A stretch of DNA of 47,675 nucleotides, from contig PFMH01000047.1 in NCBI GenBank assembly GCA_002785325.1, forward strand, positions 1 to 47,675. The letters run 5' to 3'. Made by a program: the position numbers and the translations under genes. Within the stretch, counting starts at the first letter, position 1. The number at the start of each line of letters is the position of its first letter. Below are positions 840-17,768 of this stretch, in pieces. Source of the stretch: a bacterium (Candidatus Howlettbacteria) CG_4_10_14_0_8_um_filter_40_9. GTDB lineage: Bacteria > Patescibacteriota > CPR2 > UBA1875 > GCA-2785325. A model generated the notes under the pieces. The model saw only the letters and a program-made list of their open reading frames with translations. It was not told the DNA's origin and ran no database searches.

Positions 840-856
840 ACGATTCTTCGAAATAT

Positions 857-2655: not shown

Positions 2656-2772
2656 ATTTAAAATTAAAATCTCAAAGTTAAAAATGACAATGCAAAATTT
2701 TAAACTGTAATTTTTATTTTTTAAATTTAAACTTTAAATTAAATTAGGTATAAAAAGGAATTTAATAAACAA

Positions 2773-3468
2773 ATGAAAGTAAGTGTATACGACAAACAAG
2801 GGAAGAAGGTTAAAGACTTAGATATAAAGTCGGCTGTTTTGGATACGGAACCGAAACCTTTAGTTTTGAGAGAGGTTGTACTTTCTTTTTTAGCCGGGCA
2901 AAGAAATGCTCATGCAAAAACAAAGAAGAGAGGCGAAGTGTCTGGCGGAGGCAAAAAGCCTTGGAGACAAAAAGGAACAGGACGAGCTAGGACAGGATCC
3001 ATCAGAAATCCGATCTGGATCGGCGGAGGAAATATCTTTGGACCGACTGGGATAGAAAATTTCAATAAGAAAGTAAATGTAAAAGTTAAGAAGCAGTCAC
3101 TTTTTATGGCTCTTTCGAGTAAAAAAAGCGTAAACGGGATTATCGTTTTAGATAAGATTGATCTTAAGGCGCCAAAGACAAAAGAAGTCGCAAATATTTT
3201 TAAAAAATTACCGGTTGAAGGAAAAAAACTTGTTGTTTTACCTGAAAATTCAGAAATTCTAAGTAAATCTTTAAAGAACTTAGAAGACACAAAAGCCATT
3301 TCATTTAAAAGCTTGAATACATACGAAGTGCTGCGAGCAAGACAAGTTGTTTTTATAGGAGATGCATTGGAAAAAACTGTTGAATATTTTGGAAGCAAAG
3401 AAAAGAAGAAGGCAGAACCGAAACAGAAAGAGACAAAGCCGTCTACATCACCTAAAGCTAAGGAGTAA
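2773..3468 (+). CDS. rplD: 50S ribosomal protein L4
   Basis: GGGKKPWRQKGTGRAR signature. Lys-rich C-terminal tail. Confidence 0.95.
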   Translation: MKVSVYDKQGKKVKDLDIKSAVLDTEPKPLVLREVVLSFLAGQRNAHAKTKKRGEVSGGGKKPWRQKGTGRARTGSIRNPIWIGGGNIFGPTGIENFNKKVNVKVKKQSLFMALSSKKSVNGIIVLDKIDLKAPKTKEVANIFKKLPVEGKKLVVLPENSEILSKSLKNLEDTKAISFKSLNTYEVLRARQVVFIGDALEKTVEYFGSKEKKKAEPKQKETKPSTSPKAKE

Positions 3469-3470
3469 AC

Positions 3471-3755
3471 ATGATTTACGATATTTTGAGACAACCGGTT
3501 ATATCAGAAAAGAGCTTTGCTAAGGCAGAGGAAGGCAAGTATGTCTTTTGGGTTTCGACTGATGCCAACAAGATAACCGTAAAAGAGGCAGTAGAAAAAG
3601 CTTTTAAAGTGGATGTCAGAAACGTAAATATCCTAAATCTAAAAGGAAAAGTAAAAAGTTTTGGGAGAAAAAGCGTTGGCAAGAGAAAAGACAGAAAGAA
3701 AGCTATAGTTACATTGAAAAAGGGACAAGAGATAAAGGAATTGAAAATAAGTTAG
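3471..3755 (+). CDS. rplW: 50S ribosomal protein L23
   Basis: 94 aa, ISEKSF...KITVKEAVEKAFKVDV. Position between L4 and L2. Confidence 0.93.
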   Translation: MIYDILRQPVISEKSFAKAEEGKYVFWVSTDANKITVKEAVEKAFKVDVRNVNILNLKGKVKSFGRKSVGKRKDRKKAIVTLKKGQEIKELKIS

Positions 3756-3855
3756 GGAAAAATATCCAATTAACAATATCCAATTTCCAATGAGGATTAT
3801 AAGAAGATAGATTTAATAACCAAATAGCGAACAGCTAATAGCTAACAGCAAGATT

Positions 3856-4689
3856 ATGGCAATCAAAGTTTACAAACCGACAACACCAGGAAGAAGAGGA
3901 ATGACCTCGGATGCTTTTACTGATATCACAAAGAAAAAGCCCGAGAAAGCTTTGACTGTGACTTTGAAAAAAAAGGCTGGTAGAAATGCGCAAGGTAAGA
4001 TAACGGTAAGGCATAGAGGCGGCGGTGCAAAAAGAAAATACAGGATTATAGAATTTGGCAGTATTGAAAATAAGAAAGCTATAGTGGAAGCTATCGAGTA
4101 TGATCCAAACAGATCAGCAAGGATAGCCCTCATCAAGTTTGAAGATGGCAAAAAGGCATATATCATTGCACCGCAAGGGATGACTGTAGGGAAAAAGCTC
4201 GAGTTTGGGGCTGAAGCCGATGTAAAAACGGGGAACAGAATGCCACTTTCTAAGATACCGGTTGGTACTACTATCTACAATGTTGAGATTATACTAGGCA
4301 AAGGTGCCCAGCTCGCAAGGTCTGCGGGGACATCTGCCCAGCTAGTTGCACGCGAAGGCGCCTATGGACACGTAAAGCTTCCTTCAGGTGAAATAAGGTT
4401 GGTGGATGTTAGATGTTATGCTTCTGTAGGGGCTGTTTCAAATCCGGATCATTCCAACATCAAGATCGGAAAAGCCGGGAGAAAGAGACACATGGGTATA
4501 CGACCTACCGTCACCGGTAAATCTATGAACCCGGTAGATCACCCGCATGGAGGAGGAGAAGGCCATCAGCCGATCGGAATGAAACATCCAAAAACTCCTT
4601 GGGGAGCAGCTGCTTTGGGACTTGTTACTCGAAAGAGAAACAAGCCTTCAAATAAATATATAGTAAGAAAGAGAAAGAAGAAGAGATAA
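3856..4689 (+). CDS. rplB: 50S ribosomal protein L2
   Basis: [12 protein letters not shown] and HPHGGGEG motifs. Confidence 0.97.
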
Positions 4690-4828
4690 AGGGTAATGTC
4701 TAATATCAAATTACTAATATCTAATGAAATCCCAAATGTCAATTCAAAGATAATTAGACATTTGACATTAAATAATTTGAAAATTGATTAGAAATTAGAA
4801 ATTGTTAATTAGAAATTAAGGAAAAATT
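4690..4828 (+). repeat. AT-rich self-complementary intergenic spacer (rplB/rpsS)
   Basis: 5' half TAATGTCTAAT...TACTAATATCTAAT. 3' half ATTAGACATT...GATTAGAAATTAGAAATTGTTAATTAGAAATTA. Confidence 0.6.
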
Positions 4829-5107
4829 ATGTCTAGATCATCAAAAAAAGGCCCATATGTAAATGAAAGACTTCTAAGCAAGATTATAAATCTTGCTGCG
4901 GGCGAAAAGAAAGTTATAAAGACTTGGGCTAGGAATTCGGATATTTCCCCGGAAATGGTCGGACATACTTTGGGCGTTCATAACGGCAAAGATTTTATTC
5001 AAGTTTTTATATCAGAAGAGATGGTCGGACATAAACTAGGAGAATTTTCTCCCACAAGGAAGTTCAGAGGACATGGTGGAAAGCTTGCAAAAGCACAAAA
5101 GAAATAA
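4829..5107 (+). CDS. rpsS: 30S ribosomal protein S19
   Basis: SKKGPYV...HNGKDF...[16 protein letters not shown]. Confidence 0.96.
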
Positions 5108-5132
5108 CCCAATTAATAAAAGGTAAGTAAAC

Positions 5133-5780
5133 ATGGAAGTTAGAGCACAAATCAAATATATAAAGATATCTCCTCTAAAAGCCAGAACGGCTGTTGGAGT
5201 GATAAAAGGCAAAAATGCGATGTCAGCATATCAAATGCTAAAGCATATGCCGCAAAAGAGTGCGGGAGTTTTGGCTAAGGTACTTACCAGCGCCATGGCA
5301 AATGCTGAGAATAATCATAACCTTGATAGAGAAGCTTTGACTGTAAAAGAAGCCTATGTAGATAACGGACCGAGTTTTAAAAGGATTCAACCGAGGGCTC
5401 GAGGTTTAGCTTTTGGAATACTCCGAAAGACAAGTCACATAACGATCGTAGTTTCCGGTGAAAAAGAGTCTCGAAAGATAAAGAAAGCAGTACCGGTTGA
5501 GGAAGAAAAGAAGATAGAAACTCCGGTAGAGCAAAAAGCGCAAAAAGTTGAGACTCAGAAGGTAGCGGAAGTAAAGGAGAAAGAAGTTGTTACGGAAAAG
5601 GCAGAAACAGCAAAAGTAGAAGAAAAGAAAACATTGAAAGATTTGGCGAAAGATAGAGTAAAGAAAGAAACCGGAGAAAAGAAAACAGTCAAAGAAGAAG
5701 GATTCAAGGGAGATAAGAAGAGCTCCGATCATGAAAAAGGCGGATTCTGGAATAAATACTTCAGACGTAAAACAGGATAA
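5133..5780 (+). CDS. rplV: 50S ribosomal protein L22 with ~100-aa K/E-rich C-terminal extension
   Basis: The N-terminal ~110 aa are L22-like (ISPLKARTAVGVIKGKNA...HITIVV). The remainder is a low-complexity K/E/V tail. Confidence 0.92.
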   Translation: MEVRAQIKYIKISPLKARTAVGVIKGKNAMSAYQMLKHMPQKSAGVLAKVLTSAMANAENNHNLDREALTVKEAYVDNGPSFKRIQPRARGLAFGILRKTSHITIVVSGEKESRKIKKAVPVEEEKKIETPVEQKAQKVETQKVAEVKEKEVVTEKAETAKVEEKKTLKDLAKDRVKKETGEKKTVKEEGFKGDKKSSDHEKGGFWNKYFRRKTG

Positions 5781-5862
5781 ATAAAAATTTCCAATTAACA
5801 ATATCCAATAAAAATTATAAAAAATCTTATTTACTAATCACTAATCACTAACAACTAATATT

Positions 5863-6552
5863 ATGGGACAAAAAGTAAATCCAATCAGTTTTAGACTTCA
5901 GTACAGTAAGAAATGGAAATCAATGTGGTTTGCAGGCAAGGAAGACTATGCCCGATTTCTTCATGAAGACCTGAAGTTAAGGGAAGCGGTCTTTAGTATC
6001 CTTGGACCAAAAGGAGGCATTGCTGACGTTCGTATAGAAAGAAGCGCAAATGAGATAAATATCTTCCTATCTACCTCTCGACCAGGAGTGATCATCGGCA
6101 GAGGCGGAACAGGAGCGGTAGACCTTAAGAAAAAGCTTCAAAAGTTTGCGACTGATAAGATCAAAGATATAAGTATTACTGAAGTAAAAAATCCTGAATT
6201 GAATGCTAGACTTATCGGCGACAATATCGTAGGTCAGTTAGAGAAAAGAATAGCTTTTAAGAGGGCGATGAGACAGTCAGTTGAAAGAGCTTTAAAAGCT
6301 GGGGCAAAAGGGATAAAGATCATGATTGCCGGCAGACTAAACGGAGCCGAGATCGCACGAAGAGAGTTTGTCTCAAGAGGAAAAATCCCTTTGCAGACGA
6401 TAAAAGCAGACGTTGATTATGCTTATCTTAGAGCAAAAACAACTTACGGAATTTTGGGAGTTAAGGTTTGGGTATATAAAGGCCAGGATATAGATAGAAC
6501 GGTAGAAGTAAAAAAGGCAGAAGATGATAGCATCGTTGGGGGAAAGAGGTAA
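5863..6552 (+). CDS. rpsC: 30S ribosomal protein S3
   Basis: MGQKVNPISFRL...GRLNGAEIAR. Confidence 0.96.
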   Translation: MGQKVNPISFRLQYSKKWKSMWFAGKEDYARFLHEDLKLREAVFSILGPKGGIADVRIERSANEINIFLSTSRPGVIIGRGGTGAVDLKKKLQKFATDKIKDISITEVKNPELNARLIGDNIVGQLEKRIAFKRAMRQSVERALKAGAKGIKIMIAGRLNGAEIARREFVSRGKIPLQTIKADVDYAYLRAKTTYGILGVKVWVYKGQDIDRTVEVKKAEDDSIVGGKR

Positions 6553-6679
6553 ACAATTTCCAATTAACAATATCCAATAACCAATTAGATAATTAGCCAA
6601 AACAGTCAGGGATTAGACATTTATACATTAGGATTTGATTAGAAATTAGTAATTAGATATTAGAAATTAAAACAAATAT
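6553..6679 (+). repeat. AT-rich intergenic spacer (rpsC/rplP)
   Basis: Starts with the TCCAATTAACAATATCCAAT box and ends with ATTAGACATT...GATTAGAAATTAGTAATTAGATATTAGAAATTA. Confidence 0.6.
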
Positions 6680-7114
6680 ATGTTAATGCCAAAAAAGACA
6701 AAACATAGAAAGCAGATGAAAAACCCTCAGTATGGAAATGATACTAGGGGGACCGATATTGCTTTTGGCAAATATGCGATAAAGTCTTTGGAAGCGTCAT
6801 GGATAACTTCGAGGCAGATAGAAGCGGCCAGAAGAACTATGACCAGACACATAAAAAGAGGCGGTAAGATATGGATCAGGATATTCCCCGACAAGCCGAT
6901 TACAAAAAAGCCGAACGAGCTCGGTATGGGTAAAGGAAAAGGACCGCTTGACCATTATGTCGCCGTTATAAAGCCAGGCAGAATAATTTTTGAAATGGAT
7001 GGAGTAGCAAAAGAAGTAGCTATGGAAGCATTGAAACTGGCTTGTTATAAACTTCCGGTGAAAACAAAGATAATAGAAAGAGAAACAGCAGGAGAAAAAC
7101 ATGAAGATAAATGA
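6680..7114 (+). CDS. rplP: 50S ribosomal protein L16
   Basis: [12 protein letters not shown]...[20 protein letters not shown]. Confidence 0.96.
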
Positions 7115-7361
7115 TATTGTTTCAAAAAAAGAAGATGTTTTGAGAAATGACCTTACCGAGCTTAGAAAAAAGCTCGAAGAGGCAAGATTTCAGATATCTA
7201 CAAGAGAAGAGAAAAATCTGAAAAAAATTCACAGCATCAAAAAAGATATTGCGAGAATCATGACGATTCTTAGAGAAAAAGAGATTATCGAAAGTGAAAA
7301 ATCTGCGTTGGCTGAAGATAAGCCTTCACTAAAGAGTATTAAAAACGGAAAGCGAAAGTAA
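7101..7361 (+). CDS. rpmC: 50S ribosomal protein L29
   Basis: 86-aa helical K/E protein. Overlaps rplP by 14 nt. Canonical position between L16 and S17. Confidence 0.85.
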
Positions 7362-7363
7362 AT

Positions 7364-7633
7364 ATGAAAAGAAGATTAATAGGAAAGGTTGTTTCAAATA
7401 AGATGGATAAGACGATTGTTATCTCGGTTGAGAGAGTCAAGGAGCACCCTATCTATAAAAAGAAATACAAGGTTTCAAAAAGATTTAAAGCCCACGCAGA
7501 AAACGCAAAAGAAGTTGTCATGGGTTCGGTTGTTACGATAGAAGAGTCAAGGCCGATGAGCAAAGAGAAGAGATGGACCATCGTCACCGAAGAAAAGGTT
7601 GAGAAAAAAGAAACAGTTAAGAAAGAAAAATAA
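7364..7633 (+). CDS. rpsQ: 30S ribosomal protein S17
   Basis: GKVVSNKMDKTIVISVER...HPIYKK. Confidence 0.94.
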   Translation: MKRRLIGKVVSNKMDKTIVISVERVKEHPIYKKKYKVSKRFKAHAENAKEVVMGSVVTIEESRPMSKEKRWTIVTEEKVEKKETVKKEK

Positions 7634-7659
7634 TTTAAAATTATTCGAAAGACAAACAT

Positions 7660-8028
7660 ATGATTCAAATGCAGACAAGACTTAAAGTAGCAGACAACAC
7701 AGGCGCAAAAGACGTTATGTGTATCAAGGTGCTTGGCGGATCTAGGAGAAGATATGCCAGGTTGGGCGACATCATTGTCGTTTCTGTTAAGAAAGCGATC
7801 CCAAACGCCAATGCAAAAAAGAAAGAAGTCGCCCGAGCCGTTGTTGTGAGACAAGTTCAGGAATTCAGTCGAAAAGACGGTTCAAAGATTCGTTTCGATG
7901 AGAACGCCTGTGTCCTTATTACCAAAGACGGACTGCCAAGAGGAACGAGAATATTTGGGCCGGTTGCGAGAGAGCTTCGAGAAAAAGGTTATATGAAGAT
8001 AGTATCATTAGCAAAGGAAGTATTATAA
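7660..8028 (+). CDS. rplN: 50S ribosomal protein L14
   Basis: [17 protein letters not shown]. Confidence 0.97.
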
Positions 8029-8088
8029 CAATTAACAATTACCAATATCCAATTAACAATAAGATATTGATTAAATATTAAGGTTAAA

Positions 8089-8460
8089 ATGAAAATCAAA
8101 AAAGGCGACAAAGTAATAGTTCAACTAGGGAAAGACAGAGGAAAAGTTTCTACTGTGGAAAGGGTTTTGCCCAACACGGGAAAGCTTCTAGCTGATAAGG
8201 TAAATGTGGTAAAGAAACACAAAAAACCGACTCAAAATGAGAAAAGAGGCGGAATCATCGAAATGGAAAAACCGCTAAATGTTTCAAATGTTATGGTAGT
8301 TTGCCCAAATTGCAACAAACCAACAAGAGTTTCATATAGCATCAATAATAAGAGTAAAGAGAGAGTTTGTAAAAAATGCAAAGGTTCGCTGGATAAGACC
8401 CTTAGTCAAACTTATGGTAAAAACCTCTCGACTAAGCTCGGGGTAAAGGAGAGGAAATAA
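8089..8460 (+). CDS. rplX: 50S ribosomal protein L24 (four-Cys variant)
   Basis: KOW motif KIKKGDKVIVQLGKDRGK. The C-terminal half carries CPNC...CKKC. Confidence 0.93.
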   Translation: MKIKKGDKVIVQLGKDRGKVSTVERVLPNTGKLLADKVNVVKKHKKPTQNEKRGGIIEMEKPLNVSNVMVVCPNCNKPTRVSYSINNKSKERVCKKCKGSLDKTLSQTYGKNLSTKLGVKERK

Positions 8461-9002
8461 TGTCAAGCTTAAAAGATTTATATAAAAAAGAGATCGTACC
8501 GAAACTTAAGGAAGAGATCGGTTGCAAAAATGTCATGGAAGTTCCAAAGATTTCCAAAGTAGTTTTGAATGTTGGCGCCGGAAGATCGATCACGGATGCG
8601 AAGATCCTTGAGCAGGTTATAGAAGGGCTTTCTCGGGTAACTGGACAACTTCCGAAAAAGACAAAGGCGAAAAAGTCTATCGCCGGATTCAAGCTGAGAG
8701 AGGGGATGGAGATCGGAGCGATGGTTACTTTGAGAGGTGATCGAATGTTTGAATTTTTAGAAAGACTTATCGGTTCGGCTTTACCGCGAGTTAGAGATTT
8801 CAGAGGAATACCAGCGACATCTTTCGACGGTAGGGGGAATTACAGTTTTGGTATGAAGGAAATGTCTGTTTTTCCAGAAGTTTCTCCCGAAGATATCTTT
8901 GCCGGATACGGATTAGAGATAAGTATTATAACAACGGCAAAAAAAGATGAAGAAGCAAAGGCGCTGCTTACCCATCTGGGATTCCCGTTTAAAAAAATAT
9001 AA
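8460..9002 (+). CDS. rplE: 50S ribosomal protein L5
   Basis: LPRVRDFRGI...GNYSFGMKE. TAATG overlap with rplX. Confidence 0.96.
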   Translation: MSSLKDLYKKEIVPKLKEEIGCKNVMEVPKISKVVLNVGAGRSITDAKILEQVIEGLSRVTGQLPKKTKAKKSIAGFKLREGMEIGAMVTLRGDRMFEFLERLIGSALPRVRDFRGIPATSFDGRGNYSFGMKEMSVFPEVSPEDIFAGYGLEISIITTAKKDEEAKALLTHLGFPFKKI

Positions 9003-9035
9003 AAAATATTAACAGCAAACAACTAAGATAAAATT

Positions 9036-9221
9036 ATGGCAAGAAAAGCATTAGAAGCAAAAGCAAAAAGAAAACCGAAATTTTCTTCAAGGAAATTAAA
9101 CAGATGTAAAATCTGCGGCAGAAAACACGGCTATATGAGAGATTTTGCTATGTGCCGGATTTGCTTTCGTGAAAGGGCATCCAGGGGAGAGATTCCCGGT
9201 GTCGTTAAGTCTAGTTGGTAG
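9036..9221 (+). CDS. rpsN: 30S ribosomal protein S14, short zinc-binding (type Z) form
   Basis: 61 aa, [23 protein letters not shown]. Confidence 0.95.
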
Positions 9222-9334
9222 ATCAAAAGGCCACGGATTGACACAGATTTTGAATAGCCACTGATAAACACCGAAAAGATATTTGTAAAATTTGTAGATT
9301 AGTAATTAATTTGTAATTAGTAAGAGGAAAAAAT

Positions 9335-10282: not shown

Positions 10283-10404
10283 GTCATAGGTCTAACTACG
10301 AATTACGAATTTAGTACAAATGTACAAATATCGAATTAGTAGTTTTAAGGTATTAGTAGATTCGTAAAAATTAGTAATTAGTAGTAAATTTTTAAGGAAA
10401 AATT
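10283..10404 (+). repeat. AT-rich self-complementary spacer (rplF/rplR), TACGAAT/TAGTAG word variant
   Basis: CTACGAATTACGAATTTAGTA... opposite ...ATTAGTAGATTCGTAAAAATTAGTAATTAGTAG. Confidence 0.6.
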
Positions 10405-10743
10405 ATGGCAGACAGAGAAATAAGAAGGAGAAGAATAAGATCAAAGATACAGGGAACGAAAGAAATCCCAAGACTTAACGTCCGTATCTCAAACAGCCAT
10501 GTGTATGGTCAGATCATTGACGACGCGACCGGAGTGACTATCGTGTCTTGTTCGGACATGCAAAAAGACTCTAAGATAAAAGGTAAAAAGATCGAGATTG
10601 CGAAAGAGCTAGGATCTGTTTTGGCAAAAAAAGCAAAAGAAAAAAAGATTGAAAAAGTAGTTTTTGATAGAGGTTTTAGGATTTATCACGGGAGAGTCGC
10701 CGCTTTTGCTGAAGGGGCGAGAGAGGGCGGACTATTATTCTAA
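10405..10743 (+). CDS. rplR: 50S ribosomal protein L18
   Basis: PRLNVRISNSHVYGQIIDD...YHGRVAAFAEGAREGGL. Confidence 0.95.
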   Translation: MADREIRRRRIRSKIQGTKEIPRLNVRISNSHVYGQIIDDATGVTIVSCSDMQKDSKIKGKKIEIAKELGSVLAKKAKEKKIEKVVFDRGFRIYHGRVAAFAEGAREGGLLF

Positions 10744-10826
10744 TTTCTAAATCCGAATTTCCAATTTCTAAACAAATCCGAATGACAGAAACTAGAAATA
10801 TTAAATTTTTAAAATAAATAAAAATT

Positions 10827-11486
10827 ATGACTAAAGAAGAAGAGAAAAAAAATACAGAAGAAACAAAAGAACCCGCCTCGACTGACACGAGTCAAGTCGG
10901 GGAAACTCCAAAGGCGGAGGTAGTTGCTCCTATTGAAAAGAAGGAAGTTTTGCCAAACCAGAGAGAAGTCAGAAAAACCGGTTTTGGAGGTGGAAAAGGC
11001 GGGTATAGAAAAGGTTCGAATGACGATGGCGGTGATGGACTGGAAGAAAAAGTTGTCGAGATCGACAGAATTACTAGAGTTGTAAAAGGCGGAAGAAGGA
11101 TGAGGTTTAGAGCAACAGTAGTAGTAGGGGATAAGAACGGCAAAGTAGGCGTAGCTGTAGCAAAAGGGACGGAAGTTTTGACCGCGATCACCAAGGCGAC
11201 ATCTAAAGCAAAGAAAGAACTTTCACCTATAAATCTCAAAGGAACGACTATCCCGCATGAAGTATATGTAGAATATTCAGGCGCAAAAGTGCTCCTAAAG
11301 CCGGCTTCCCCAGGTACCGGTATTATAGCGGGCGGACCAGTAAGAGCCGTTGTTGAAGCGGCGGGAGTCAAAGACGTCTTGTCAAAGGCGATGGGTTCAA
11401 ATAGCAGGTTAAATAATGTTTATGCTACTTTTTTGGCCCTAAAACAGCTGAGGAAATTTGAAAAGAAAACCAAAGGAGATAAATAA
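10827..11486 (+). CDS. rpsE: 30S ribosomal protein S5 with ~60-aa N-terminal extension
   Basis: [21 protein letters not shown] core, preceded by a K/E/T-rich extension. Confidence 0.94.
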
Positions 11487-11938
11487 TGAAGTTAAGTGAA
11501 ATTCCTAAAAATTCAGACAGAACCAGTCGAAGAGTAGGCAGGGGAACCGGTTCGGGGCACGGAAAAACTTCCGGTCGGGGACACAACGGGCAAAACTCTC
11601 GTTCTGGCGGCGGAACAAGGCCGGGGTTTGAAGGCGGACAGATGCCTTTGGTCCAGCGACTTCCAAAACAGAGAGGTTTTAAGTCTAGAACGAAAAAAGA
11701 GACTGTAAATATCAAATCTCTTCCTTCTGTCTTTGAAGAAGGCGCCGTGATCACAAAGGATATACTTTTTGAAAAAGGCATCATAAAAAGCAAAAAATCT
11801 TTTATAAAGATAGTTGGTAAACCGGAAGGGAAAAAATATAAGATCGATCTTCCTGTTTCTTCCTCTCTAAAAGAAATGGCCGTTGAAAATAAAATTTCAA
11901 AACCAGAAGCAAAAAATAGTCCTAAAAAGGAGGGATAG
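11486..11938 (+). CDS. rplO: 50S ribosomal protein L15
   Basis: [19 protein letters not shown]. Starts in a TAATG overlap with rpsE, so no L30 gene lies between them. Confidence 0.94.
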
Positions 11939-13252
11939 TTGGAATATATAAAACAAGTATTTTTTAACAAAGATCTAAGGAAAAGAGTCTTGTTTGTTCT
12001 TTTTTTACTCTTTATATTCAGACTTGTTTCTCATATCCCGATACCGGTGTCGGATCCGGCAACACTTAAATATTTTTTAGGGAATCTTTTTGCTCAAAAT
12101 TCATTTTTATCATTTTTAGATATTTTTAGCGGCGGAGGGATCAGTCGATTTTCTATAGCGATGATGGGCGTCGGTCCATATATTACGGCCTCTATCATGA
12201 TCCAGCTTTTGACTATGGTAATTCCGAAGTTTGAAGTCATGAGCAAAGAGGGGGAGCAGGGCAGTCATAAACTAAATCAATATTCGAGGATTATTGCCGT
12301 CCCGTTAGCCTTTTTTGAAGGGTACGGTATGATAAGATTTATCCAAAATGTATCCGCAAAATCAGGGGCAGACGTCATCGGAACACCATCTCTCGCTCAA
12401 TGGCTGATCATGCTGTTATCTCTGACGGCCGGAACCATCTTCCTTATGTGGATAGGGGAGATAATCACCGAGAAAGGTTTGGGAAACGGTATTTCCCTCA
12501 TCATCTTCGCCGGGATCTTGTCCAGGGCGCCCCAGACTATCTATCAGAGCGTTTCAAAAGTATTTTTGGGGCAGTTTGACCCGCAACAGCTGATCAGGCT
12601 TATTTCGTTTACCGCGCTTGGAATTTTCGTAGTTTTCTTGGTAGTTCTTATTACCGAAGGACAAAGGGAAATCCCGGTATCTTACGCCAAAAAGATGAGA
12701 GGAATAAAGACATATGGGGGGATAGATACCCATCTGCCACTTAAACTAAATACGGCAGGGGTGATACCGATCATCTTCGCCGGCGCATTTATGAATGTCC
12801 CCGCCGTCATCGGTTTCTTTACAAATGCAAAAAATGTGACGCTTAGCAAATATGCCGCGTTGATCCAGAAAACTTTTGCTCCGGACCAGATAGCATATGC
12901 TGTACTTTTCTTCATACTTGTATTTGCCTTTACTTTTTTCTCAACATTTTTATACTTCAAACCGAAAGAAGTGGCTGAAAACATCCAAAAACAGGGTGGT
13001 TTCGTTCCAGGTATAAGACCCGGCAAAGAGACAGAAAATTACCTAAATTACCTAATATCAAGGATAACCTTTTGGGGAGCGGTATTTTTGGGCGCCATCG
13101 CAGTTATGCCTTTTGTCTTGCAGCTTTTTATGAAGACAACCAATCTTAGTCTAGGCGGAACCAGCTTGCTGATCGCCGTGTCGGTGGCTTTAGAGATAAG
13201 GAAAGAAATAAGCGCGCAGATCGTGACGAGAAAATACGAGGCGTTGGGTTAA
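11939..13252 (+). CDS. secY: Preprotein translocase subunit SecY
   Basis: 437-aa polytopic membrane protein in the canonical position. TTG start 5 nt after AAGGAGGG. Confidence 0.95.
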   Translation: MEYIKQVFFNKDLRKRVLFVLFLLFIFRLVSHIPIPVSDPATLKYFLGNLFAQNSFLSFLDIFSGGGISRFSIAMMGVGPYITASIMIQLLTMVIPKFEVMSKEGEQGSHKLNQYSRIIAVPLAFFEGYGMIRFIQNVSAKSGADVIGTPSLAQWLIMLLSLTAGTIFLMWIGEIITEKGLGNGISLIIFAGILSRAPQTIYQSVSKVFLGQFDPQQLIRLISFTALGIFVVFLVVLITEGQREIPVSYAKKMRGIKTYGGIDTHLPLKLNTAGVIPIIFAGAFMNVPAVIGFFTNAKNVTLSKYAALIQKTFAPDQIAYAVLFFILVFAFTFFSTFLYFKPKEVAENIQKQGGFVPGIRPGKETENYLNYLISRITFWGAVFLGAIAVMPFVLQLFMKTTNLSLGGTSLLIAVSVALEIRKEISAQIVTRKYEALG

Positions 13253-13380
13253 CAAAATTCTAAGCTCTAAACACTAAATTCTAAACAATATCAAATAACA
13301 AAAATATAAAAGTTTTAAACATTAGAAAATTTGAATTTTGGATTTGTTTCGGATTTAGATATTAGAGTTTAGGGTTTACT
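13253..13380 (+). repeat. AT-rich self-complementary spacer (secY/infA)
   Basis: AAATTCTAAGCTCTAAACACTAAATTCTAAACAA opposite TTGTTTCGGATTTAGATATTAGAGTTTAGGGTTT. Confidence 0.6.
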
Positions 13381-13391
13381 ATTAAAAACCC

Positions 13392-13420
13392 TTGTAAAGT
13401 TTTTAAAAACAATATATAAT
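13392..13420 (+). promoter_or_regulatory. Sigma70-type promoter upstream of infA
   Basis: TTGTAA, 17-nt spacer, TATAAT. Confidence 0.55.
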
Positions 13421-13436
13421 TTACAAAGTTAAAGTT

Positions 13437-13658
13437 ATGAGTGATACAAAGGAAGTAATCGAGATGCAAGGAACCGTCCTTGAGACACTCCCTAACGCAA
13501 TGTTTAGAGTGGAGCTCGAGAACGGTCACGTTATTTTAGCTCATATATCCGGAAGGATGCGAAAGCATTATATAAAGATACTTCAGGGAGATAAAGTAAC
13601 CGTAGAAATGACTCCTTACGATTTGACGAAGGGGAGAATAACATATAGACATAAGTAG
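13437..13658 (+). CDS. infA: Translation initiation factor IF-1
   Basis: 73 aa, [20 protein letters not shown]...[14 protein letters not shown]. Confidence 0.96.
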
Positions 13659-13747
13659 TTCACGGCTTATGTCTGATAGTTCATAGAACAGGAGTATCGG
13701 ATTTATTTTACCAATGAACAAAGAGCAGTGAACTAGGAGCAAAAATT

Positions 13748-13861
13748 ATGAAAGTCAGGGCATCAGTAAAAAAAATGTGTAAAGATTGCAAAGTGATACG
13801 CCGAGAAGGAGTTATCAGAGTTATTTGTATACATCCAAAACATAAACAGAGACAAGGATAG
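13748..13861 (+). CDS. rpmJ: 50S ribosomal protein L36 (not in the supplied ORF track)
   Basis: Hand translation gives [37 protein letters not shown] then stop. AGGAG lies 8 nt upstream. Canonical position between infA and rpsM. Confidence 0.93.
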
Positions 13862-13968
13862 GATAAAATTTCCAATTAACAATTTCTAATATCCAATGAA
13901 GTTTCAAAAGTTTAAAAATTTAGAATTTGTTTAGCATTTAGTGATTAGAATTTAGGATTTAAGATATT
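13862..13968 (+). repeat. AT-rich self-complementary spacer (rpmJ/rpsM)
   Basis: AAAATTTCCAATTAACAATTTCTAATATCCAAT opposite TTTAGAATTTGTTTAGCATTTAGTGATTAGAATTTAGGATTT. Confidence 0.6.
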
Positions 13969-14355
13969 ATGGCAAGAATAGCAGGAATAAATATACCAAA
14001 TGAAAAAAGAGTCGAAGTATCCCTTACATATATAAAAGGGGTAGGGCTTACGTCCAGCCAGAAGATTTTGGCTGAGGCTGGTATTGATCCAAACTTAAGA
14101 ACAAAGGACCTTACAGAAGCTGATATAACGAAGATAAGAGGGATTTTAGATAAAAAACATCTTATAGAAGGAGATCTGGTCCGAGAAGTAACCACAAATA
14201 TCAAAAGGTTAAAGGACACAGGTTCATATAGAGGCTTAAGGCACAAAGCCGGGTTACCGACTAGGGGGCAGAGAACAAAAACAAATGCAAGAACGAAAAA
14301 AGGCAAGAAAGTTACGGTAGGAAGCGGAAGAAAGAAAGCGGTAGCAAAGACATAA
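13969..14355 (+). CDS. rpsM: 30S ribosomal protein S13
   Basis: [10 protein letters not shown]...[23 protein letters not shown]. Confidence 0.96.
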
Positions 14356-14476
14356 CAGTAAAATTTCTAATATCGAATTTCTAATTTCTAAATAAATCCC
14401 AATTTCAAAAATTTAAAATATTAGAATTTAGAATTTGTTTAGGATTTAGAGATTAGAATTTAGGATTTAAAACATT
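14356..14476 (+). repeat. AT-rich self-complementary spacer (rpsM/rpsK), type example
   Basis: 5' arm 14360-14403 (AAAATTTCTAATATCGAATTTCTAATTTCTAAATAAATCCCAAT). 3' arm 14420-14470 (ATTAGAATTTAGAATTTGTTTAGGATTTAGAGATTAGAATTTAGGATTTAA). Confidence 0.65.
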
Positions 14477-14872
14477 ATGGCAAAAGAAAAAATAGTTAAA
14501 AAGAAGAAGAAATCAAAAAAGACAGTAGCTGTCGGTAGGTTATATGTTTACGCTACTTTTAATAATACAATAGTTACTTGTACCGATGAAAACGGCAATG
14601 TGCTTGCGTGGGAAACTGCGGGCAAGGCCGGATTCAAAGGTTCGAGAAAAGCAACGCCTTATGCGGCTCAAGTAGCAGCAGGCAAAGTGGCGGACACCGT
14701 AAAGACAAATCACGGTCTTGAAAAAGTAGACGTTTTTATAAAAGGTATAGGTTCAGGGAGAGAATCAGCTGTCAGGGCTTTTCAGAATTCAGGAATATAT
14801 GTGAGTTCGATCAAAGATATTACACCAACTCCCCACAATGGAGTGAGGCCAAAAAAACCGAGGAGAGTATAA
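14477..14872 (+). CDS. rpsK: 30S ribosomal protein S11
   Basis: [15 protein letters not shown]...TPTPHNG.RPKK.RR. Confidence 0.96.
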
Positions 14873-15004
14873 TTAAAATTTCTAATTCCTAATATATAAT
14901 TTCTAAATAAATACCAATAGATCAAATCAAAAAATTTAAAACATTAAAAATTTAAAAAATTGTTTAGAATTTAGAGTTTAGAGTTTAGGATTTAAAAAAA
15001 TGAT
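14873..15004 (+). repeat. AT-rich self-complementary spacer (rpsK/rpsD)
   Basis: AAAATTTCTAATTCCTAATATATAATTTCTAAATAAATACCAAT opposite TTGTTTAGAATTTAGAGTTTAGAGTTTAGGATTT. Confidence 0.6.
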
Positions 15005-15628
15005 ATGGCAAAGATAACAAACGAAACATGTAAATTATGCAGGAGAGAGCGAGTAAAGCTTTTTCTAAAAGGAGAAAGATGTCTTTCCCCGAAATGCGCC
15101 GTGGCTAAAAGGCCTTATCCGCCTGGAGCTCACGGGCAGTCTAGGAGATCGAAGCTTTCTGACTATGCTGTTTCTTTGCGCGAAAAGCAGAAGGTTAAAA
15201 GGATTTATGGCGTTTTAGAAAAGCAGTTCAGGAATTATTTTGAAAAAGCCGACAAAAAAGAAGGCGTTACCGGTGAGATATTGCTTCAGTATTTAGAAAT
15301 GAGATTTGACACAATTGTAAAAAATATGAACTTTGCCGATTCCCAGAGACAAGCCAGACAGATTATCGGGCACGGACATTTTTTGATAAATGGTAAAAAG
15401 GTAAATATCTCTTCTTATCAGATGAAGCCGGGTGACAAAGTAGAGGTTTCTGAAAAAAGCAAAAAAGAAATGTATTTTAAAGAATTACAAAGTTTAAAAA
15501 AAGATGCGGTTAGTTGGGTTAGTTCCGACCTTGCGCATCTTAAAGGCGAGGTTTTAGGCGTTCCTAAGAGAGCAGACCTTGATCCTGAGATACAAGAACA
15601 GCTTATAGTCGAGCTTTATAGCAAATAA
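15005..15628 (+). CDS. rpsD: 30S ribosomal protein S4
   Basis: CKLCRRERVKLFLKGERC...; S4 domain GHGHFLINGKKVNISSY. Confidence 0.96.
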   Translation: MAKITNETCKLCRRERVKLFLKGERCLSPKCAVAKRPYPPGAHGQSRRSKLSDYAVSLREKQKVKRIYGVLEKQFRNYFEKADKKEGVTGEILLQYLEMRFDTIVKNMNFADSQRQARQIIGHGHFLINGKKVNISSYQMKPGDKVEVSEKSKKEMYFKELQSLKKDAVSWVSSDLAHLKGEVLGVPKRADLDPEIQEQLIVELYSK

Positions 15629-15662
15629 TTAATCCTGGTTTCCAGGGAGTTAAGGAGATATC

Positions 15663-16628
15663 ATGCTTTACAACATCCATCTTCCAGAAGTAAAAGAAGT
15701 AAAAAGTGAAAAAAATATTGGAGTGTTCTCTATAGAACCGCTTTACCCGGGCTATGGAATGACTTTGGGCAATTCGCTTCGAAGAGTCGTACTGTCCAGT
15801 CTAGAAGGTTCTGCCGTTACAGCCGTAAAGATAGATGGAGTTTCACATGAGTATACAACGATGCCAAATGTAAAAGAAGATGTTATAGATATTATCCTGA
15901 ACCTAAAACAACTGCGTGTTAAAAGTATGTCATCTGAGCCTGTATATCTTACTCTTTCTGCTTCGGGTGAAGGAGAGGTAAAAGCAAAAGATATAAAGCC
16001 AAATGCTGACGTAGAAGTTATAAACGGCGATCTCTCTATAGCACACTTGTCTTCAAAGACTTCAAAGTTAAACATGGAGATAAAGATCGAAAATGGCAGA
16101 GGATATGTTCCAGTAGAAAAGAGAGAGGGAGAGAAACTCGAAGTCGGGATGATAGCGATCGACGCCCTATATACACCGGTGAAAAGGGTAAGGTACAATG
16201 TCGAAAGCACTCGTGTCGGACAGATGACAAACTTGGACAAGCTTGTTTTTGAAGTTGAAACCGACGGATCCATAACACCTAGGGAGACGATAGAAAAAGC
16301 TGCTGAGATATTGGTAGAACACTTTTTGGTAATCAGCGGAAAAGAAGCGGTAACCGTAGGCGTGGCTAAGAAAGAAGGAGTTGTCGGAGATGATGGAGAA
16401 TCCTCAAAGATACTTCTAGAAGAGATAAACCTTTCTCCTCGAACGACAAATGCGCTTCTAAACAATGATTTAAAAACTGTAGACGATATCTTAAAAATCG
16501 GGAGCAAAGAGCTCAAAGGTCTAAAAGGATTTGGTTCAAAAGCTTTTGATGAAGTAGTAGACAAGATAAAAGATCTTGGATTTGATTTTGCAGATTCAGA
16601 TAGCGAAGAACCAGTCGTAGAAGAATAG
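15663..16628 (+). CDS. rpoA: DNA-directed RNA polymerase subunit alpha
   Basis: 321 aa, GMTLGNSLRRVVLSSLEG...; C-terminal domain LSPRTTNALLNNDLKTV. Confidence 0.96.
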   Translation: MLYNIHLPEVKEVKSEKNIGVFSIEPLYPGYGMTLGNSLRRVVLSSLEGSAVTAVKIDGVSHEYTTMPNVKEDVIDIILNLKQLRVKSMSSEPVYLTLSASGEGEVKAKDIKPNADVEVINGDLSIAHLSSKTSKLNMEIKIENGRGYVPVEKREGEKLEVGMIAIDALYTPVKRVRYNVESTRVGQMTNLDKLVFEVETDGSITPRETIEKAAEILVEHFLVISGKEAVTVGVAKKEGVVGDDGESSKILLEEINLSPRTTNALLNNDLKTVDDILKIGSKELKGLKGFGSKAFDEVVDKIKDLGFDFADSDSEEPVVEE

Positions 16629-16678
16629 TCATTTAGTTGATAAGTTGTTAAGTTAATAAGTAACTAAGTTTATTCAAG

Positions 16679-17182
16679 ATGCATAGAAGAAGTTATAGCG
16701 GTAGAAAATTTAGCAGGGAAGCGGGACCAAGGAGAGCATTGATGAGATCTCTGGCTACTTCTATTATTCTCTATGAAAAGGTAGAAACCACCAAACCAAA
16801 AGCCAAAGAAGCCCAGAGAATAGTTGAAAAGCTCATAACTTGCGGTAAAAAGGGCTCACTGGCGTCTCTAAGGAAGATAGACAGCTACCTTTTGGATAAA
16901 AATGCTTCTAAAAAAATAATTCTAGAACTGTCAAAGCTGTACAAAGATAGGAATGGCGGTTATGCTCGAGTTTTAAACATAGGGTTTAGAACGGGTGACA
17001 GCGCTTCTATGGCTAGGATAGAACTTTTAGACACGGAGAAGCTTTTGAAAACTGAAAAACCAAGTAAAAAAACCGAAGTGAAAAAAGAGACAAAGACTGA
17101 AAAGAAACCTGTTGCCAAGAAAGCAGATAAAAGCGAAGTAAAAACAAAAAAAGAACCGTCTAAGAAAAAGGATTCAAAGTAG
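16679..17182 (+). CDS. rplQ: 50S ribosomal protein L17 with K-rich C-terminal tail
   Basis: MHRRSYSGRKFSREAGPRRALMRSL. Confidence 0.95.
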   Translation: MHRRSYSGRKFSREAGPRRALMRSLATSIILYEKVETTKPKAKEAQRIVEKLITCGKKGSLASLRKIDSYLLDKNASKKIILELSKLYKDRNGGYARVLNIGFRTGDSASMARIELLDTEKLLKTEKPSKKTEVKKETKTEKKPVAKKADKSEVKTKKEPSKKKDSK

Positions 17183-17233
17183 AGGTATTTGTAATATTTG
17201 TATGATTTGTATTAAATTTGTAAATTAGTGGCC

Positions 17234-17671
17234 ATGAAGACTTCAGTAACAAAAAAATCAGATATAGAGCGAAAATGGTATATCATAGATGCCGAGGGCG
17301 TTATATTGGGCAAAGTGGCCGTTAGGGCTGCAGATCTTTTGCGTGGGAAAAACAAAGTAAATTTCTCACCTTCAGTCGACTGCGGGGATCATGTGATTAT
17401 CATAAACGCTTCCAAGATAGCTGTTACCGGCGGCAAAGAAGAGAAAAAGAAATATTATCGGCACAGCTGGTATCCCGGTGGACTTAAGACCTTTACGCTA
17501 AACCAGATGATGGCGAAAGATTCTAGAAAAGTGATCGAGCTTGCGGTAAAAGGAATGCTTCCAAAGAATAAGCTGGCCGATGAGATGATCAAAAAGATGA
17601 AAGTTTTTAAAGATGAAAAACATGATCACGAAGCTCAACAGCCGGAAGTTATAAAATTTTCTAATTCTTAA
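17234..17671 (+). CDS. rplM: 50S ribosomal protein L13
   Basis: MKTSVTKKSDIERKWYIIDA aligns with L13 N-termini. The ORF track begins 6 nt earlier at a GTG (17228). Confidence 0.93.
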   Translation: MKTSVTKKSDIERKWYIIDAEGVILGKVAVRAADLLRGKNKVNFSPSVDCGDHVIIINASKIAVTGGKEEKKKYYRHSWYPGGLKTFTLNQMMAKDSRKVIELAVKGMLPKNKLADEMIKKMKVFKDEKHDHEAQQPEVIKFSNS

Positions 17672-17768
17672 TGTTTAATTTTTAAATAAATCTTAATGAT
17701 CAAATTTTGAAACATTAAAACATTATTTACAAAATTTAAAAATTACAAAATTAAAAAAATTGACTATC

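Follow-up and report, generated by a model that had tools for sequence, protein, structure and literature searches.

The window, i.e. the whole 47,675-nucleotide stretch analysed here, comes from an ultra-small bacterium of the Patescibacteria (CPR) and carries the S10-spc-alpha cluster of ribosomal-protein genes. According to ORF coordinates and spacer composition, 14 junctions from rplC through rpsI hold spacers of 60–184 nt with 10–29% GC, and repeat arrays are likewise present at rpoA/rplQ (50 nt) and rplQ/rplM (45 nt). Other junctions are tight: rplD/rplW (2 nt), rpsS/rplV (25), rplP/rpmC (-14), rpmC/rpsQ (2), rpsQ/rplN (26), rplX/rplE (-1), rplE/rpsN (33), rpsH/rplF (18), rpsE/rplO (-1), rplO/secY (0) and rpsD/rpoA (34). 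The gene order and the division into tight and long junctions given in the initial annotation agree with the ORF coordinates and gene identities. The closest relatives (secY 54–69% identical) mostly show, at the matching junctions, the 0–30 nt gaps that it called normal. Like spacer designs lie beyond the cluster at tuf/rpsJ (403–506) and at a minus-strand junction (41921–42145); the recurrence described elsewhere is clear at nusG/rplK and weak at rsmH/ftsL. The other contigs in which the sequence of the window is present all match it (nearly) perfectly, three being 100% and one 99.995% identical.

The short words from which the spacers were said to be assembled are real and correspond to a 7-nt periodicity. 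Lag-7 identity in the window spacers is 0.512, where base composition would give 0.35, and the signal repeats at lags 14 and 21; coding DNA is flat. TRF finds period-7 arrays in nearly all spacers. C is skewed to the 5' halves and G to the 3' halves, and several spacers are one-armed. An AGGA-type motif lies 4–15 nt upstream of the start in about 11 of 17 spacers, which bears out the described AGGA/AGGAG for these and not for the remainder. Some copies expose the SD, others mask it and several lack one; in predicted structures the terminal AGGA is base-paired in three copies.

Alignments and an nhmmer search identified seven window spacers as homologous copies of one palindromic element of about 105–140 bp and 13–25% GC, hereafter family A. 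These copies and an adjacent promoter are:

4692..4823, + strand: full copy in the rplB/rpsS spacer, seed sequence of the profile; nhmmer 66.9 bits (+ strand) and 31.9 (- strand); RNA fold -22 kcal/mol, z -2.1.
6554..6674, + strand: copy in the rpsC/rplP spacer with a TCCAAT/TAACAAT variant of the left arm; nhmmer 69.3 bits; sense RNA fold no better than shuffles (z -0.35); arm mismatches 5 A-C, 0 G-U.
13254..13380, + strand: best-preserved copy, 3' of secY and 5' of the infA promoter; nhmmer 71.5 bits; RNA fold -31.8 kcal/mol, z -7.0.
13392..13420, + strand: sigma-70-like infA promoter (TTGTAA-17-TATAAT), outside the element; 10/12 matches in a promoter scan.
13865..13966, + strand: copy in the rpmJ/rpsM spacer with a degraded hairpin; nhmmer 61.3 bits; fold z +0.98.
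14359..14474, + strand: copy in the rpsM/rpsK spacer; nhmmer 75.9 bits; RNA fold -24 kcal/mol, z -3.4; AGGA in the last heptamer, 11 nt from ATG.
14875..14997, + strand: copy in the rpsK/rpsD spacer; nhmmer 68.5 bits; fold z -0.7.
27017..27139, + strand: copy in the nusG/rplK spacer, outside the region delimited by the initial annotation; nhmmer 76.8 bits; fold z -2.2.

The left arm of family A consists of three to four heptamers with a near-invariant CTAA, and the right arm of three to four heptamers with a near-invariant TTAG. Between them lies a non-repetitive centre (AAACAAAT ... variable loop ... ATTTGTTT). The ends are sharp (AAWTYCTAA ... TTAGRWTTT), the composition of the flanks turning random exactly at this point. 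In the cores, C, A and A are 98–100% conserved and the intervening 2–3 nt vary freely; a 21-base pattern ascertained the metagenome copies, which inflates the apparent conservation at those positions. Polarity relative to transcription is identical in all seven window copies, as determined with nhmmer. Selection could account for this, as could duplication or gene conversion spreading the element locally. In L001 a homologous element at rpsM/rpsK matches the window copy, and the rpsK/rpsD junction of that locus is only 4 nt. A -35/-10 pair similar to that of the window precedes infA in L001, L005, L008, L010 and L012.

The window also holds partial copies, a second palindromic family (family B) and other arrays:

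2655..2740, + strand: A/T-only palindrome in the rplC/rplD spacer; 43-nt arms, 77% complementary; hairpin alignment z 5.8; unmatched by both family profiles, RNA fold not significant.
3760..3801, + strand: solo left-arm array (TCCAAT/TAACAAT) in the rplW/rplB spacer; nhmmer E 0.028; TRF period 7.
5781..5862, + strand: rplV/rpsC spacer with two C-type heptamer arrays, TTTCCAATTAACAATATCCAAT and ACTAATC x4 (sequence, TRF); zero G, no hairpin or SD, MFE 0 kcal/mol.
8029..8088, + strand: solo left-arm-type array (TAACAAT x5) in the rplN/rplX spacer; TRF period 7, 5 copies.
9281..9319, + strand: one-armed G-type array (ATTTGTA/ATTAGTA) directly 5' of rpsH (TRF, sequence).
10296..10385, + strand: family-B palindromic element (TACGAAT...ATTCGTA/ATTAGTA) in the rplF/rplR spacer; 48.7 bits with a second nhmmer profile; fold z -2.9.
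10740..10809, + strand: partial family-A copy (left arm and centre) in the rplR/rpsE spacer; nhmmer 24.9 bits, E 2e-5, profile positions 3–72.
16635..16661, + strand: octamer array (AGTTGATA type) in the rpoA/rplQ spacer; TRF period 8.
17665..17756, + strand: A/T-only imperfect palindrome in the rplM/rpsI spacer; inverted repeats detected, RNA fold not significant.
30643..30676, + strand: right-arm-type array (ATTTAGG) at rsmH/ftsL, possibly a remnant; weak (nhmmer E 0.64), TRF period 7.
41980..42070, - strand: one-armed ATTCGTA/ATTAGTA array in sense orientation upstream of the minus-strand gene 40643–41920 (sequence, TRF).

The 3' part of the rplW/rplB spacer consists of an unrelated AGCTAAC array, and this spacer has no significant fold (z -1.5). 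The octamer word type of rpoA/rplQ recurs at tuf/rpsJ (407–435), and similar TAAGTT arrays are found in L009 and L011. Family B shares its architecture with family A, as seen with the second nhmmer profile. Outside the window it occurs at junctions other than rplF/rplR, with two full copies in L009, one full and one partial in L008, one full in L065 and one partial in L007.

A pattern scan of metagenomes yielded at least 119 further loci carrying family A, in 99 of which nhmmer gave 296 matches (best 67 bits), many contigs being multi-copy. The hosts comprise the CPR2-like lineage of the window and at least one Microgenomates/Shapirobacteria-like host (L115). Copies of about 120 nt align over their full length at unrelated loci and across different classes of Patescibacteria, and the junctions occupied differ among related genomes. 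Of the 143 near-full metagenome copies, 88 lie between co-directional, 12 between divergent and 10 between convergent genes; the median gap is 7 nt to the preceding stop and 8 nt to the following start, and orientation relative to flanking genes is 53 versus 35. The co-directional share is 0.76 with an element and 0.69 at element-free junctions. Ribosomal-cluster genes are present in only 6 of the 119 element loci, among the matches listed. In about one tenth of the loci listed, the element is found within 23S rRNA genes, at helix tips. The sites used include the classic RNase III intervening-sequence (IVS) sites in helices 9, 25 and 45, and insertions recur over 11–12 loci at ~131–178, ~540–617, ~1143–1223, ~1700–1770, ~2127–2161 and ~2200–2224 (E. 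coli numbering). One 23S rRNA gene (L136) contains five copies, one of them in the helix-25 loop; two identical copies occupy two different helices of this gene. Short (<200 bp) unclassified insertions at IVS sites of CPR 23S rRNA genes have been termed 'probably IVS' (Tsurumaki et al., PMC11270868). Since the elements occur in several kinds of intergenic DNA and in 23S rRNA genes, they do not constitute a regulatory RNA peculiar to these operons.

At least two element families seem to have settled in short intergenic gaps of Patescibacteria genomes. These ~120-bp palindromic repeats are apparently undescribed so far: they match no curated family (Rfam: none), consistent with the earlier remark that no such element was known. 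We favour, though with reserve, the explanation that dispersed, non-coding palindromic repeats of a MITE/IVS-like kind make up the spacers, in the form of copies, variants and fragments that are co-transcribed and tolerated between cistrons. They would have spread by a copying or transposition mechanism. Mobility is deduced only from their distribution, since neither a transposase nor a target-site duplication nor an empty-site polymorphism came to light; direct repeats across the ends average 1.95 nt versus 1.68 ± 0.12 in controls. Tolerance between cistrons may have two reasons: the palindrome would fold back on itself in the transcript, and either orientation would start with TAA-containing and finish with AGGA-containing heptamers. 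The window copies would be carried passively in the polycistronic mRNA and not maintained as a regulatory structure. Cleavage by RNase III is plausible: by analogy with rRNA intervening sequences and the Correia/nemis repeats of Neisseria, intact copies are probably substrates, and may therefore cause segments of the operon transcript to be cut or stabilised as a side effect. The presence of the element at helix tips of 23S rRNA genes, the classic IVS sites among them, lends the RNase III idea of the initial annotation indirect support. Against the favoured explanation stand the common polarity of the window copies and the retention, by streamlined genomes, of 1.7 kb of such DNA in the operons they express most, which may mean that it is of some use.

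The initial annotation pointed instead to dedicated cis-acting mRNA hairpins. On this reading each spacer would be selected to fold in the sense transcript and would tune individual ribosomal-protein cistrons as an RNase III processing site, translational insulator or SD-masking element. Intact members are indeed predicted to form such long hairpins in the polycistronic transcript. Among ten spacers folded as sense RNA, five are far better than dinucleotide shuffles (z -3.4, -7.0, -2.2, -2.1 and -2.9), but the other half are not (z -0.7, -0.35, +0.98, +0.47 and -1.5). Hairpins in Patescibacteria ribosomal operons cover the whole spacer, from 0–10 nt past the stop to 5–15 nt before the start, which would suit a dedicated structure, as would the common polarity of the window copies and the paired AGGA of three of them. 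However, arm polarity is opposite in most other lineages, the occupied junctions are not conserved, the family is genome-wide in either orientation and the state of the SD is inconsistent. The word sets had been described as self-complementary within each spacer, yet a 5' arm pairs equally well with the 3' arms of other spacers: 76.9% of cells pair in the window-family alignment versus 78.3 ± 1.4% with partners swapped. Compensatory changes, a check set beforehand, were absent among the seven window copies and 131 unique copies, and within-copy Watson-Crick pairing in the latter was 0.708 versus 0.722 ± 0.005 with arms swapped. The excess of T opposite G put forward for a sense transcript was likewise not seen, with 14 G-U versus 17 A-C mismatches in the window family, 13 versus 14 in all significant window hairpins pooled, 244 versus 244 in intercistronic copies and 144 versus 149 in 65 operon hairpins from many lineages. 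Only the 23S rRNA copies, relatives embedded at RNase III IVS sites, have a sense-strand wobble bias (125 versus 78; by copy 19 versus 5), a point in favour of selected hairpins. We thus consider dedicated mRNA hairpins unlikely. The original observation is real, although its description holds only partly: the family and its hairpin-capable intact members stand, whereas the arguments for a selected mRNA structure and the tie to ribosomal-protein operons do not.

The repeats could also have arisen in place, by polymerase slippage on 7-nt units (LSSR/STRR type) and quasi-palindrome templating, with neither movement nor function. According to the summary of Mrazek 2007 in PMC4679880, the long SSRs of bacteria at large are most often heptamers. 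Period 7 is also the dominant tandem class in 80 Patescibacteria loci (164 arrays versus 55–61 for periods 6, 8 and 9), the repeat words are very diverse and one-armed arrays are common. Such an origin is nevertheless quite unlikely, because the non-repetitive centre and the sharp ends are conserved, ~120-nt copies can be aligned full-length across loci and classes, identical copies sit in two rRNA helices of one gene, and one element is common to rRNA and protein-gene spacers.

A further explanation, which we regard as very unlikely, is that the phased CTAA/TTAG tetramers form an array bound, in DNA or RNA, by a multimeric protein, binding being what is selected. The partner might be an enzyme that mobilises the element, a protein of the nucleoid, or a ring-forming RNA-binding protein like HutP or TRAP; the target of HutP is a set of UAG triplets spaced 4 nt apart. 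The constant cores with free spacing nucleotides would fit this idea, and the variable positions between cores pair below chance (0.378 versus 0.459 ± 0.013), a combination not expected if a master copy simply decayed neutrally. Words of a similar kind (ATTAGAA, ATTCGTA) are met again in distant lineages, and MacGregor suggested that TAACTGA heptamers lying upstream of genes, ribosomal-protein genes included, are bound post-transcriptionally (PMC4679880). However, many other heptamer words are used in other lineages and no candidate protein was identified. The element is used in either orientation and also in rRNA, which leaves no unique binding site at transcript level.

The preferred explanation, dispersed palindromic repeats, has parallels in known systems. 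The 23S rRNA IVSs of Salmonella, Yersinia, Leptospira, Campylobacter and Rhizobiales are cut out by RNase III, and the rRNA is not rejoined (PMC11270868). They resemble our elements as ~100–150 nt AT-rich extended stem-loops that replace the tips of helices 9, 25 or 45, sites at which members of the window's family are found in Patescibacteria 23S genes, and in a sporadic distribution suggesting horizontal spread. In contrast, protein-coding genes flank the window copies, the family occupies a much wider set of rRNA sites (H63, H78, H79, others and the 23S leader), and the element is made of phased heptamers, any excision of it being putative. We found no literature report of classical IVSs also populating intergenic DNA.

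The Correia/nemis elements of Neisseria and the ERIC/IRU elements of enterobacteria are MITE-like, co-transcribed, non-coding sequences of ~100–155 bp with inverted-repeat ends and hundreds of intergenic copies, often within operons. They form long hairpins in transcripts of neighbouring genes and affect mRNA processing or stability; nemis hairpins, studied by De Gregorio, Di Nocera and colleagues, are reportedly cut by RNase III. Our repeats are alike in size, inverted-repeat ends, intergenic and operon-internal location and long hairpins. Correia elements duplicate a TA target, are bounded by defined 26-bp TIRs and carry an IHF site as well as promoter-like ends; they are not known to show heptamer phasing or to occur in rRNA. 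The window element differs from them in having no visible target duplication, in its heptamer phasing, in its presence in rRNA and in belonging to a different phylum.

Intergenic heptamer repeats, i.e. the TAACTGA type of Beggiatoaceae, Cyanobacteria and Bacteroidetes (PMC4679880), cyanobacterial STRR and Mrazek's long simple sequence repeats, share with our arrays a 7-nt unit with stop codons, a position directly before starts, even inside ribosomal-protein operons, an often missing canonical SD and a patchy phylogenetic distribution. Those consist of a single unit repeated directly, in open-ended copy number, whereas in the window inverted pairs of arrays enclose a conserved unique centre, the ends are fixed and each copy contains several variants of the unit. 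REP/BIME elements, associated with RAYT transposases, are likewise extragenic palindromes, frequent between co-transcribed genes and without target duplication; a stabilising effect on upstream mRNA has been ascribed to them. REPs are GC-rich and 20–40 nt long, in contrast to the AT-rich elements of 105–140 nt found in the window.

The long AT-rich spacers of the S10-spc-alpha cluster belong to dispersed palindromic element families. One of these, family A, has a wide distribution and is found in intergenic regions of every kind as well as at the tips of rRNA helices. The division of the cluster into tight and loose junctions is exactly as the initial annotation had listed it: 14 junctions between rplC and rpsI carry 60–184 nt of DNA with 10–29% GC, and two more carry arrays of 45–50 nt. 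The eleven closest relatives mostly have 0–30 nt at the junctions expanded in the window, and some relatives (L009, L005, L011 and L003) carry their long spacers elsewhere in the cluster. The short words from which the spacers had been said to be assembled are genuine and correspond to a 7-nt periodicity, absent from coding DNA, with an identity at lag 7 of 0.512 versus 0.35 expected and echoes at lags 14 and 21. TRF detected period-7 arrays in nearly every spacer of the window. On both counts the spacers resemble the intergenic tandem 7-nt direct repeats of the STRR, LSSR and TAACTGA type. Their base composition is skewed, C being found mainly in the 5' halves and G mainly in the 3' halves.

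Self-complementarity, which had been proposed for every spacer, was found for part of them. When folded as sense RNA and compared with dinucleotide shuffles, five spacers stood out (z of -3.4, -7.0, -2.2, -2.1 and -2.9) and five did not (z of -0.7, -0.35, about +1.0, +0.5 and -1.5). Several spacers carry one arm type only, and that at 5781–5862, with zero G, gives no fold at all. The proposed matching of arms specific to each spacer was not borne out: in a cross-complementarity matrix a 5' arm matched 3' arms from other spacers as well as the one in its own spacer, and 76.9% of the cells in the alignment of the seven full window copies of family A are paired versus 78.3 +/- 1.4% with shuffled partners. 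The excess of T opposite G, taken earlier as a sign of sense-strand wobble, disappeared upon counting, with 14 G-U-compatible versus 17 A-C mismatches in the seven window copies and 144 versus 149 in 65 significant hairpins from the same operon of many Patescibacteria. Most other lineages show the opposite of the C-left/G-right polarity found in the window. Covariation tests for compensatory changes were negative both for the seven window copies and for 131 unique copies, in which Watson-Crick pairing reached 0.708 within copies versus 0.722 +/- 0.005 with swapped arms. The RNAalifold consensus of the seven copies was weak (12 pairs, -3.3 kcal/mol), since the heptamers permit several registers, and ungapped inverted-repeat detection with 8-nt seeds missed the main hairpins because their helices are short and interrupted. 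Dedicated regulatory hairpins are one rival explanation. The hairpins are real, as the initial annotation had supposed, but no evidence was obtained for a regulatory device specific to ribosomal operons, and the family is not confined to them.

It is also worth mentioning that rpsC, rplB, rpsE and rpsI have no recognisable SD and lie downstream of unstructured CA/UA-rich arrays that are poor in G and ACAAUUAC-like (5781–5862, 3756–3855, 10744–10826 and 17672–17759), which resemble S1-dependent or omega-type translational enhancers. SDs have been reported to be rare behind heptamer repeats (MacGregor, PMC4679880).

Other types of element were considered for the spacers. At the gathering score, Rfam returned only four tRNAs, with no leader or cis-regulatory RNA, and a permissive Rfam search of positions 1–18500 gave zero hits in the spacers. 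Intrinsic terminators, which are GC-rich stems with a U tract behind them, were rejected, as the 18 terminator-like sites compare with 15.1 +/- 4.2 in shuffles and none lies in a spacer. The promoter and terminator scan showed no enrichment, a conserved infA promoter being the only credible signal. A main constraint for stop codons in all frames (7 = 1 mod 3) was discarded because T is the least conserved base of CTAA and CGAA variants lack a stop. TIGR arrays, suggested by a literature match, do not fit in unit size or genomic context.

Seven spacers can be aligned end to end, loop included: rplB/rpsS, rpsC/rplP, secY/infA, rpmJ/rpsM, rpsM/rpsK, rpsK/rpsD and nusG/rplK. A profile built from these seven copies recovered partial copies at rplR/rpsE, rplW/rplB and rsmH/ftsL in the window, and further copies at other junctions in five other Patescibacteria loci (L001, L005, L009, L010 and L065). 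Metagenome contigs scanned with a 21-base two-part pattern drawn from both arms yielded at least 119 loci. The profile then matched these at least 296 times in at least 99 loci, with scores up to 67 bits, and many contigs are multi-copy. The element measures 105–140 bp, with seven full copies in 47.7 kb and at least 156 instances in at least 99 metagenome loci. In the consensus of 131 unique copies, where the pattern used to find the metagenome copies itself accounts for part of the conservation at its 21 bases, the left arm consists of heptamers with a near-invariant C-(T)-A-A, the centre reads AAACAAAT, a variable loop and ATTTGTTT, and the right arm consists of heptamers with T-T-(A)-G. Terminal inverted repeats are present (AAWTYCTAA...TTAGRWTTT), the consensus arms being complementary at 36 of 42 positions. 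Conservation stops exactly at these ends and the flanks show none. Purely local slippage is a rival explanation that the period-7 arrays could call to mind; beside it stand the end-to-end alignment and the dispersal of copies. An open-ended array of a single heptamer unit, as in STRR, LSSR or TAACTGA repeats, was rejected on account of the conserved centre, the inverted arm pair and the sharp ends.

Family A shares with MITEs that it is small (below about 500 bp), non-coding and dispersed in many copies, with terminal inverted repeats. REP/BIME elements, which are RAYT-associated imperfect palindromes, GC-rich and of 20–40 nt, differ in size and composition. As to target-site duplications, direct repeats spanning the ends of family A have a maximum length of 1.95 nt on average versus 1.68 +/- 0.12 for swapped partners, are inconsistent in length and sequence and give no clear duplication. 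Pfam detected no transposase in the ten ORFs of the window to which it was applied. Filled and empty orthologous sites were sought among the loci; these comparisons reach only ~70% nucleotide identity, too distant to define insertion boundaries. The variable bases between the CTAA and TTAG cores (profile positions 13–15, 20–22 and 27–29) are complementary less often than column composition predicts (0.378 versus 0.459 +/- 0.013 in the 131 unique copies from the window and the metagenome loci L085–L203), which gives the impression that long perfect palindromes are avoided. A protein-binding array, the third rival explanation, would accord with such phased cores.

Among 143 near-full copies, the flanking ORFs are co-directional in 88 cases, divergent in 12 and convergent in 10; the co-directional share is 0.76 with family A, not far from the 0.69 of the background. 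The orientation of the element relative to the genes is 53 versus 35. Family A fills the gap, the median distances being 7 nt to the preceding stop codon and 8 nt to the following start codon. Genes of the ribosomal cluster were found on only 6 of 119 pattern-found loci (at least 119 in all). Given these mixed contexts, the association with ribosomal operons is what the window happens to contain. One host is Shapirobacteria-like, thus from another class than the window organism.

The multi-copy contigs include a set of Patescibacteria 23S rRNA genes with up to five family A copies of ~130 nt at helix tips:
L136, 1061–4419: 23S rRNA gene with five family A copies
L108, L120, L148, L150, L202 and L194: further 23S rRNA genes with family A
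L136 matched the bacterial LSU model with 1335 bits and uses 3359 nt for model positions 1–2092. Two of its copies, in different helices, are identical in sequence, and one of the five lies in the apical loop of the helix aligned to E. coli helix 25. When 12 loci were compared with E. coli rrlH, copies were located near 131–178, 268–290, 540–617, 651–663, 1143–1223, 1355, 1700–1770, 1854–1897, 2127–2161 and 2200–2224, as well as in the 23S leader. On the E. coli map these sites include helices 9, 25 and 45, where intervening sequences (IVSs) excised by RNase III are classically found, and also the variable helices 63, 78 and 79. IVSs sit at the tips of H9, H25 and H45, whereas the window copies lie between protein genes; the copies in the helix-25 loop of L136 and near 131–178, 540–617 and 1143–1223 share the IVS location. 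Like IVSs, the rRNA copies also prolong the host helix into one continuous, extended stem-loop: they are hairpins themselves and their flanks are the complementary strands of rRNA helices. In these copies the sense wobble is in excess, with 125 G-U versus 78 A-C and, by copy, 19 versus 5 (nominal p 0.007), counts that are not fully independent since some sites are orthologous. The intercistronic copies show 244 G-U versus 244 A-C. RNA-level selection on the hairpin is thus detectable in rRNA and not between cistrons.

Few known genomes are as streamlined as those of CPR/Patescibacteria, which are also famed for unexplained rRNA insertions. Tsurumaki et al. found insertions in 82% of CPR 23S genes, regarded short insertions that lack an ORF (<200 bp) and occupy two known IVS sites as 'probably' IVSs, left this class 'uncharacterised' and drew no connection to intergenic repeats (PMC11270868). 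Our data tie these insertions to a defined family that also fills intergenic gaps, which makes a dispersed palindrome their origin and RNase III excision a fate that can be tested. Each kind of element is known by itself: dispersed palindromes, IVSs of rRNA, and heptamer repeats between genes (PMC4679880). A heptamer-built palindrome common to rRNA IVS sites and intercistronic gaps of Patescibacteria is apparently new, as no earlier description came up when open-access text was searched for the sequence words and for intergenic repeats of CPR bacteria.

The elements have probably spread between loci. Their tolerance between genes would be due to the folding of each copy on itself and, whichever way it is oriented, to heptamers that bear TAA at its start and AGGA at its end. 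Neisseria nemis repeats are cleaved by RNase III. By analogy with these and with IVSs, intact family A copies are probably cut by RNase III, and the operon transcript would be processed incidentally. A tblastn search with an approximate E. coli RNase III query gave no match in the available fragments, a sample far too small to be informative. It is conceivable, if rather unlikely, that one mobile palindrome plays the part of an 'intervening sequence' in rRNA and mRNA of Patescibacteria alike, with putative RNase III excision from 23S rRNA, fragmented at up to about ten helix tips, and from polycistronic mRNAs, ribosomal-protein operons being processed into monocistronic pieces. A putative mobilising or RNA-binding protein would then recognise the CTAA/TTAG code by its 7-nt phasing, the positions between the cores being left unpaired on purpose. 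For annotation, long 'spacers' in CPR operons should be regarded as repeats, not as regulatory leaders. The sequence model can be used for a genome-wide census and strain typing, and with this family nature has set up an experiment on how rRNA and the operons of highest expression tolerate a selfish hairpin.

The window runs from tuf' and rpsJ through a terminator, two small genes and a 368-nt leader to rplC–rpsI, followed further along by secE/nusG/rplK and the dcw cluster. Between rpsJ (507–839) and rplC, at 840–2013, a second terminator follows the small genes:
857–890: strong terminator-like hairpin after rpsJ
914–1228: small unrelated gene, no Pfam match
1343–1645: small unrelated gene, treble-clef zinc finger
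The terminators, the two unrelated genes and the leader indicate that the S10 operon is split here. The gene rpmD (L30), whose absence is a CPR trait, is missing between rpsE and rplO, which overlap at 11486; L22 (5133–5780, 215 aa) and S5 (10827–11486, 219 aa) are unusually long. The infA promoter is near-consensus (13392–13420; TTGTAA/TTGCAA, 17 nt, TATAAT), is kept in the secY/infA spacers of the CPR2-like relatives L001, L005, L008, L010 and L012, and marks an operon boundary after secY. On the minus strand at the end of the window, 37280–40456 encodes a 1058-aa TrwB/VirD4-like coupling-protein homologue, and the adjoining 40643–41920 a 425-aa protein with sigma-70 region 4 and a HARE-HTH domain. 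Four other public contigs with an identical S11 were compared for strain variation; three are 100% and one 99.995% (one mismatch) identical to the window and thus hold no informative polymorphisms. The window belongs to a Patescibacteria (CPR) bacterium. Among species-representative genomes, its secY was closest to that of one Patescibacteria MAG (69%), followed by a group of MAGs in which candidate division CPR2 is represented (54–62%). Many public MAGs (L013, L016, L017, L020 and others) are titled 'uncultured Gammaproteobacteria bacterium' despite a clearly Patescibacteria-like secY, which is 47–51% identical to that of the window and groups with Parcubacteria-type loci; these titles are probably wrong.

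Period-7 arrays, often in inverted pairs and with lineage-specific words, are the dominant tandem-repeat class in 80 Patescibacteria loci, and several other lineages have 10–14 expanded junctions in the same operon. A second palindromic family, family B (TACGAAT ... ATTCGT ... ATTAGTAATTAGTAG), forms the rplF/rplR spacer and is also present in L007, L008, L009 and L065. Two further hairpin types were noticed, a distinct GC-rich intergenic repeat 3' of rpsI, REP-like in look (CTGTCATTCCCG...GGCGGGAATCCAG and variants), and, in relatives, an intercistronic one, C-rich then G-rich (CCCTCTCCCTT...AAGAGGGAG, then AGAGGAAG):
18246–18296, 18302–18352, 19414–19442 and 21869–21898 (inverted) of the window: GC-rich REP-like repeat, intergenic
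L010, 15257–15348: GC-rich REP-like repeat at rplM/rpsI
L005, 7078–7155 and 8649–8723, and L010, 7709–7784: C-rich/G-rich hairpins at rplE/rpsN, rplR/rpsE and rpsH/rplF
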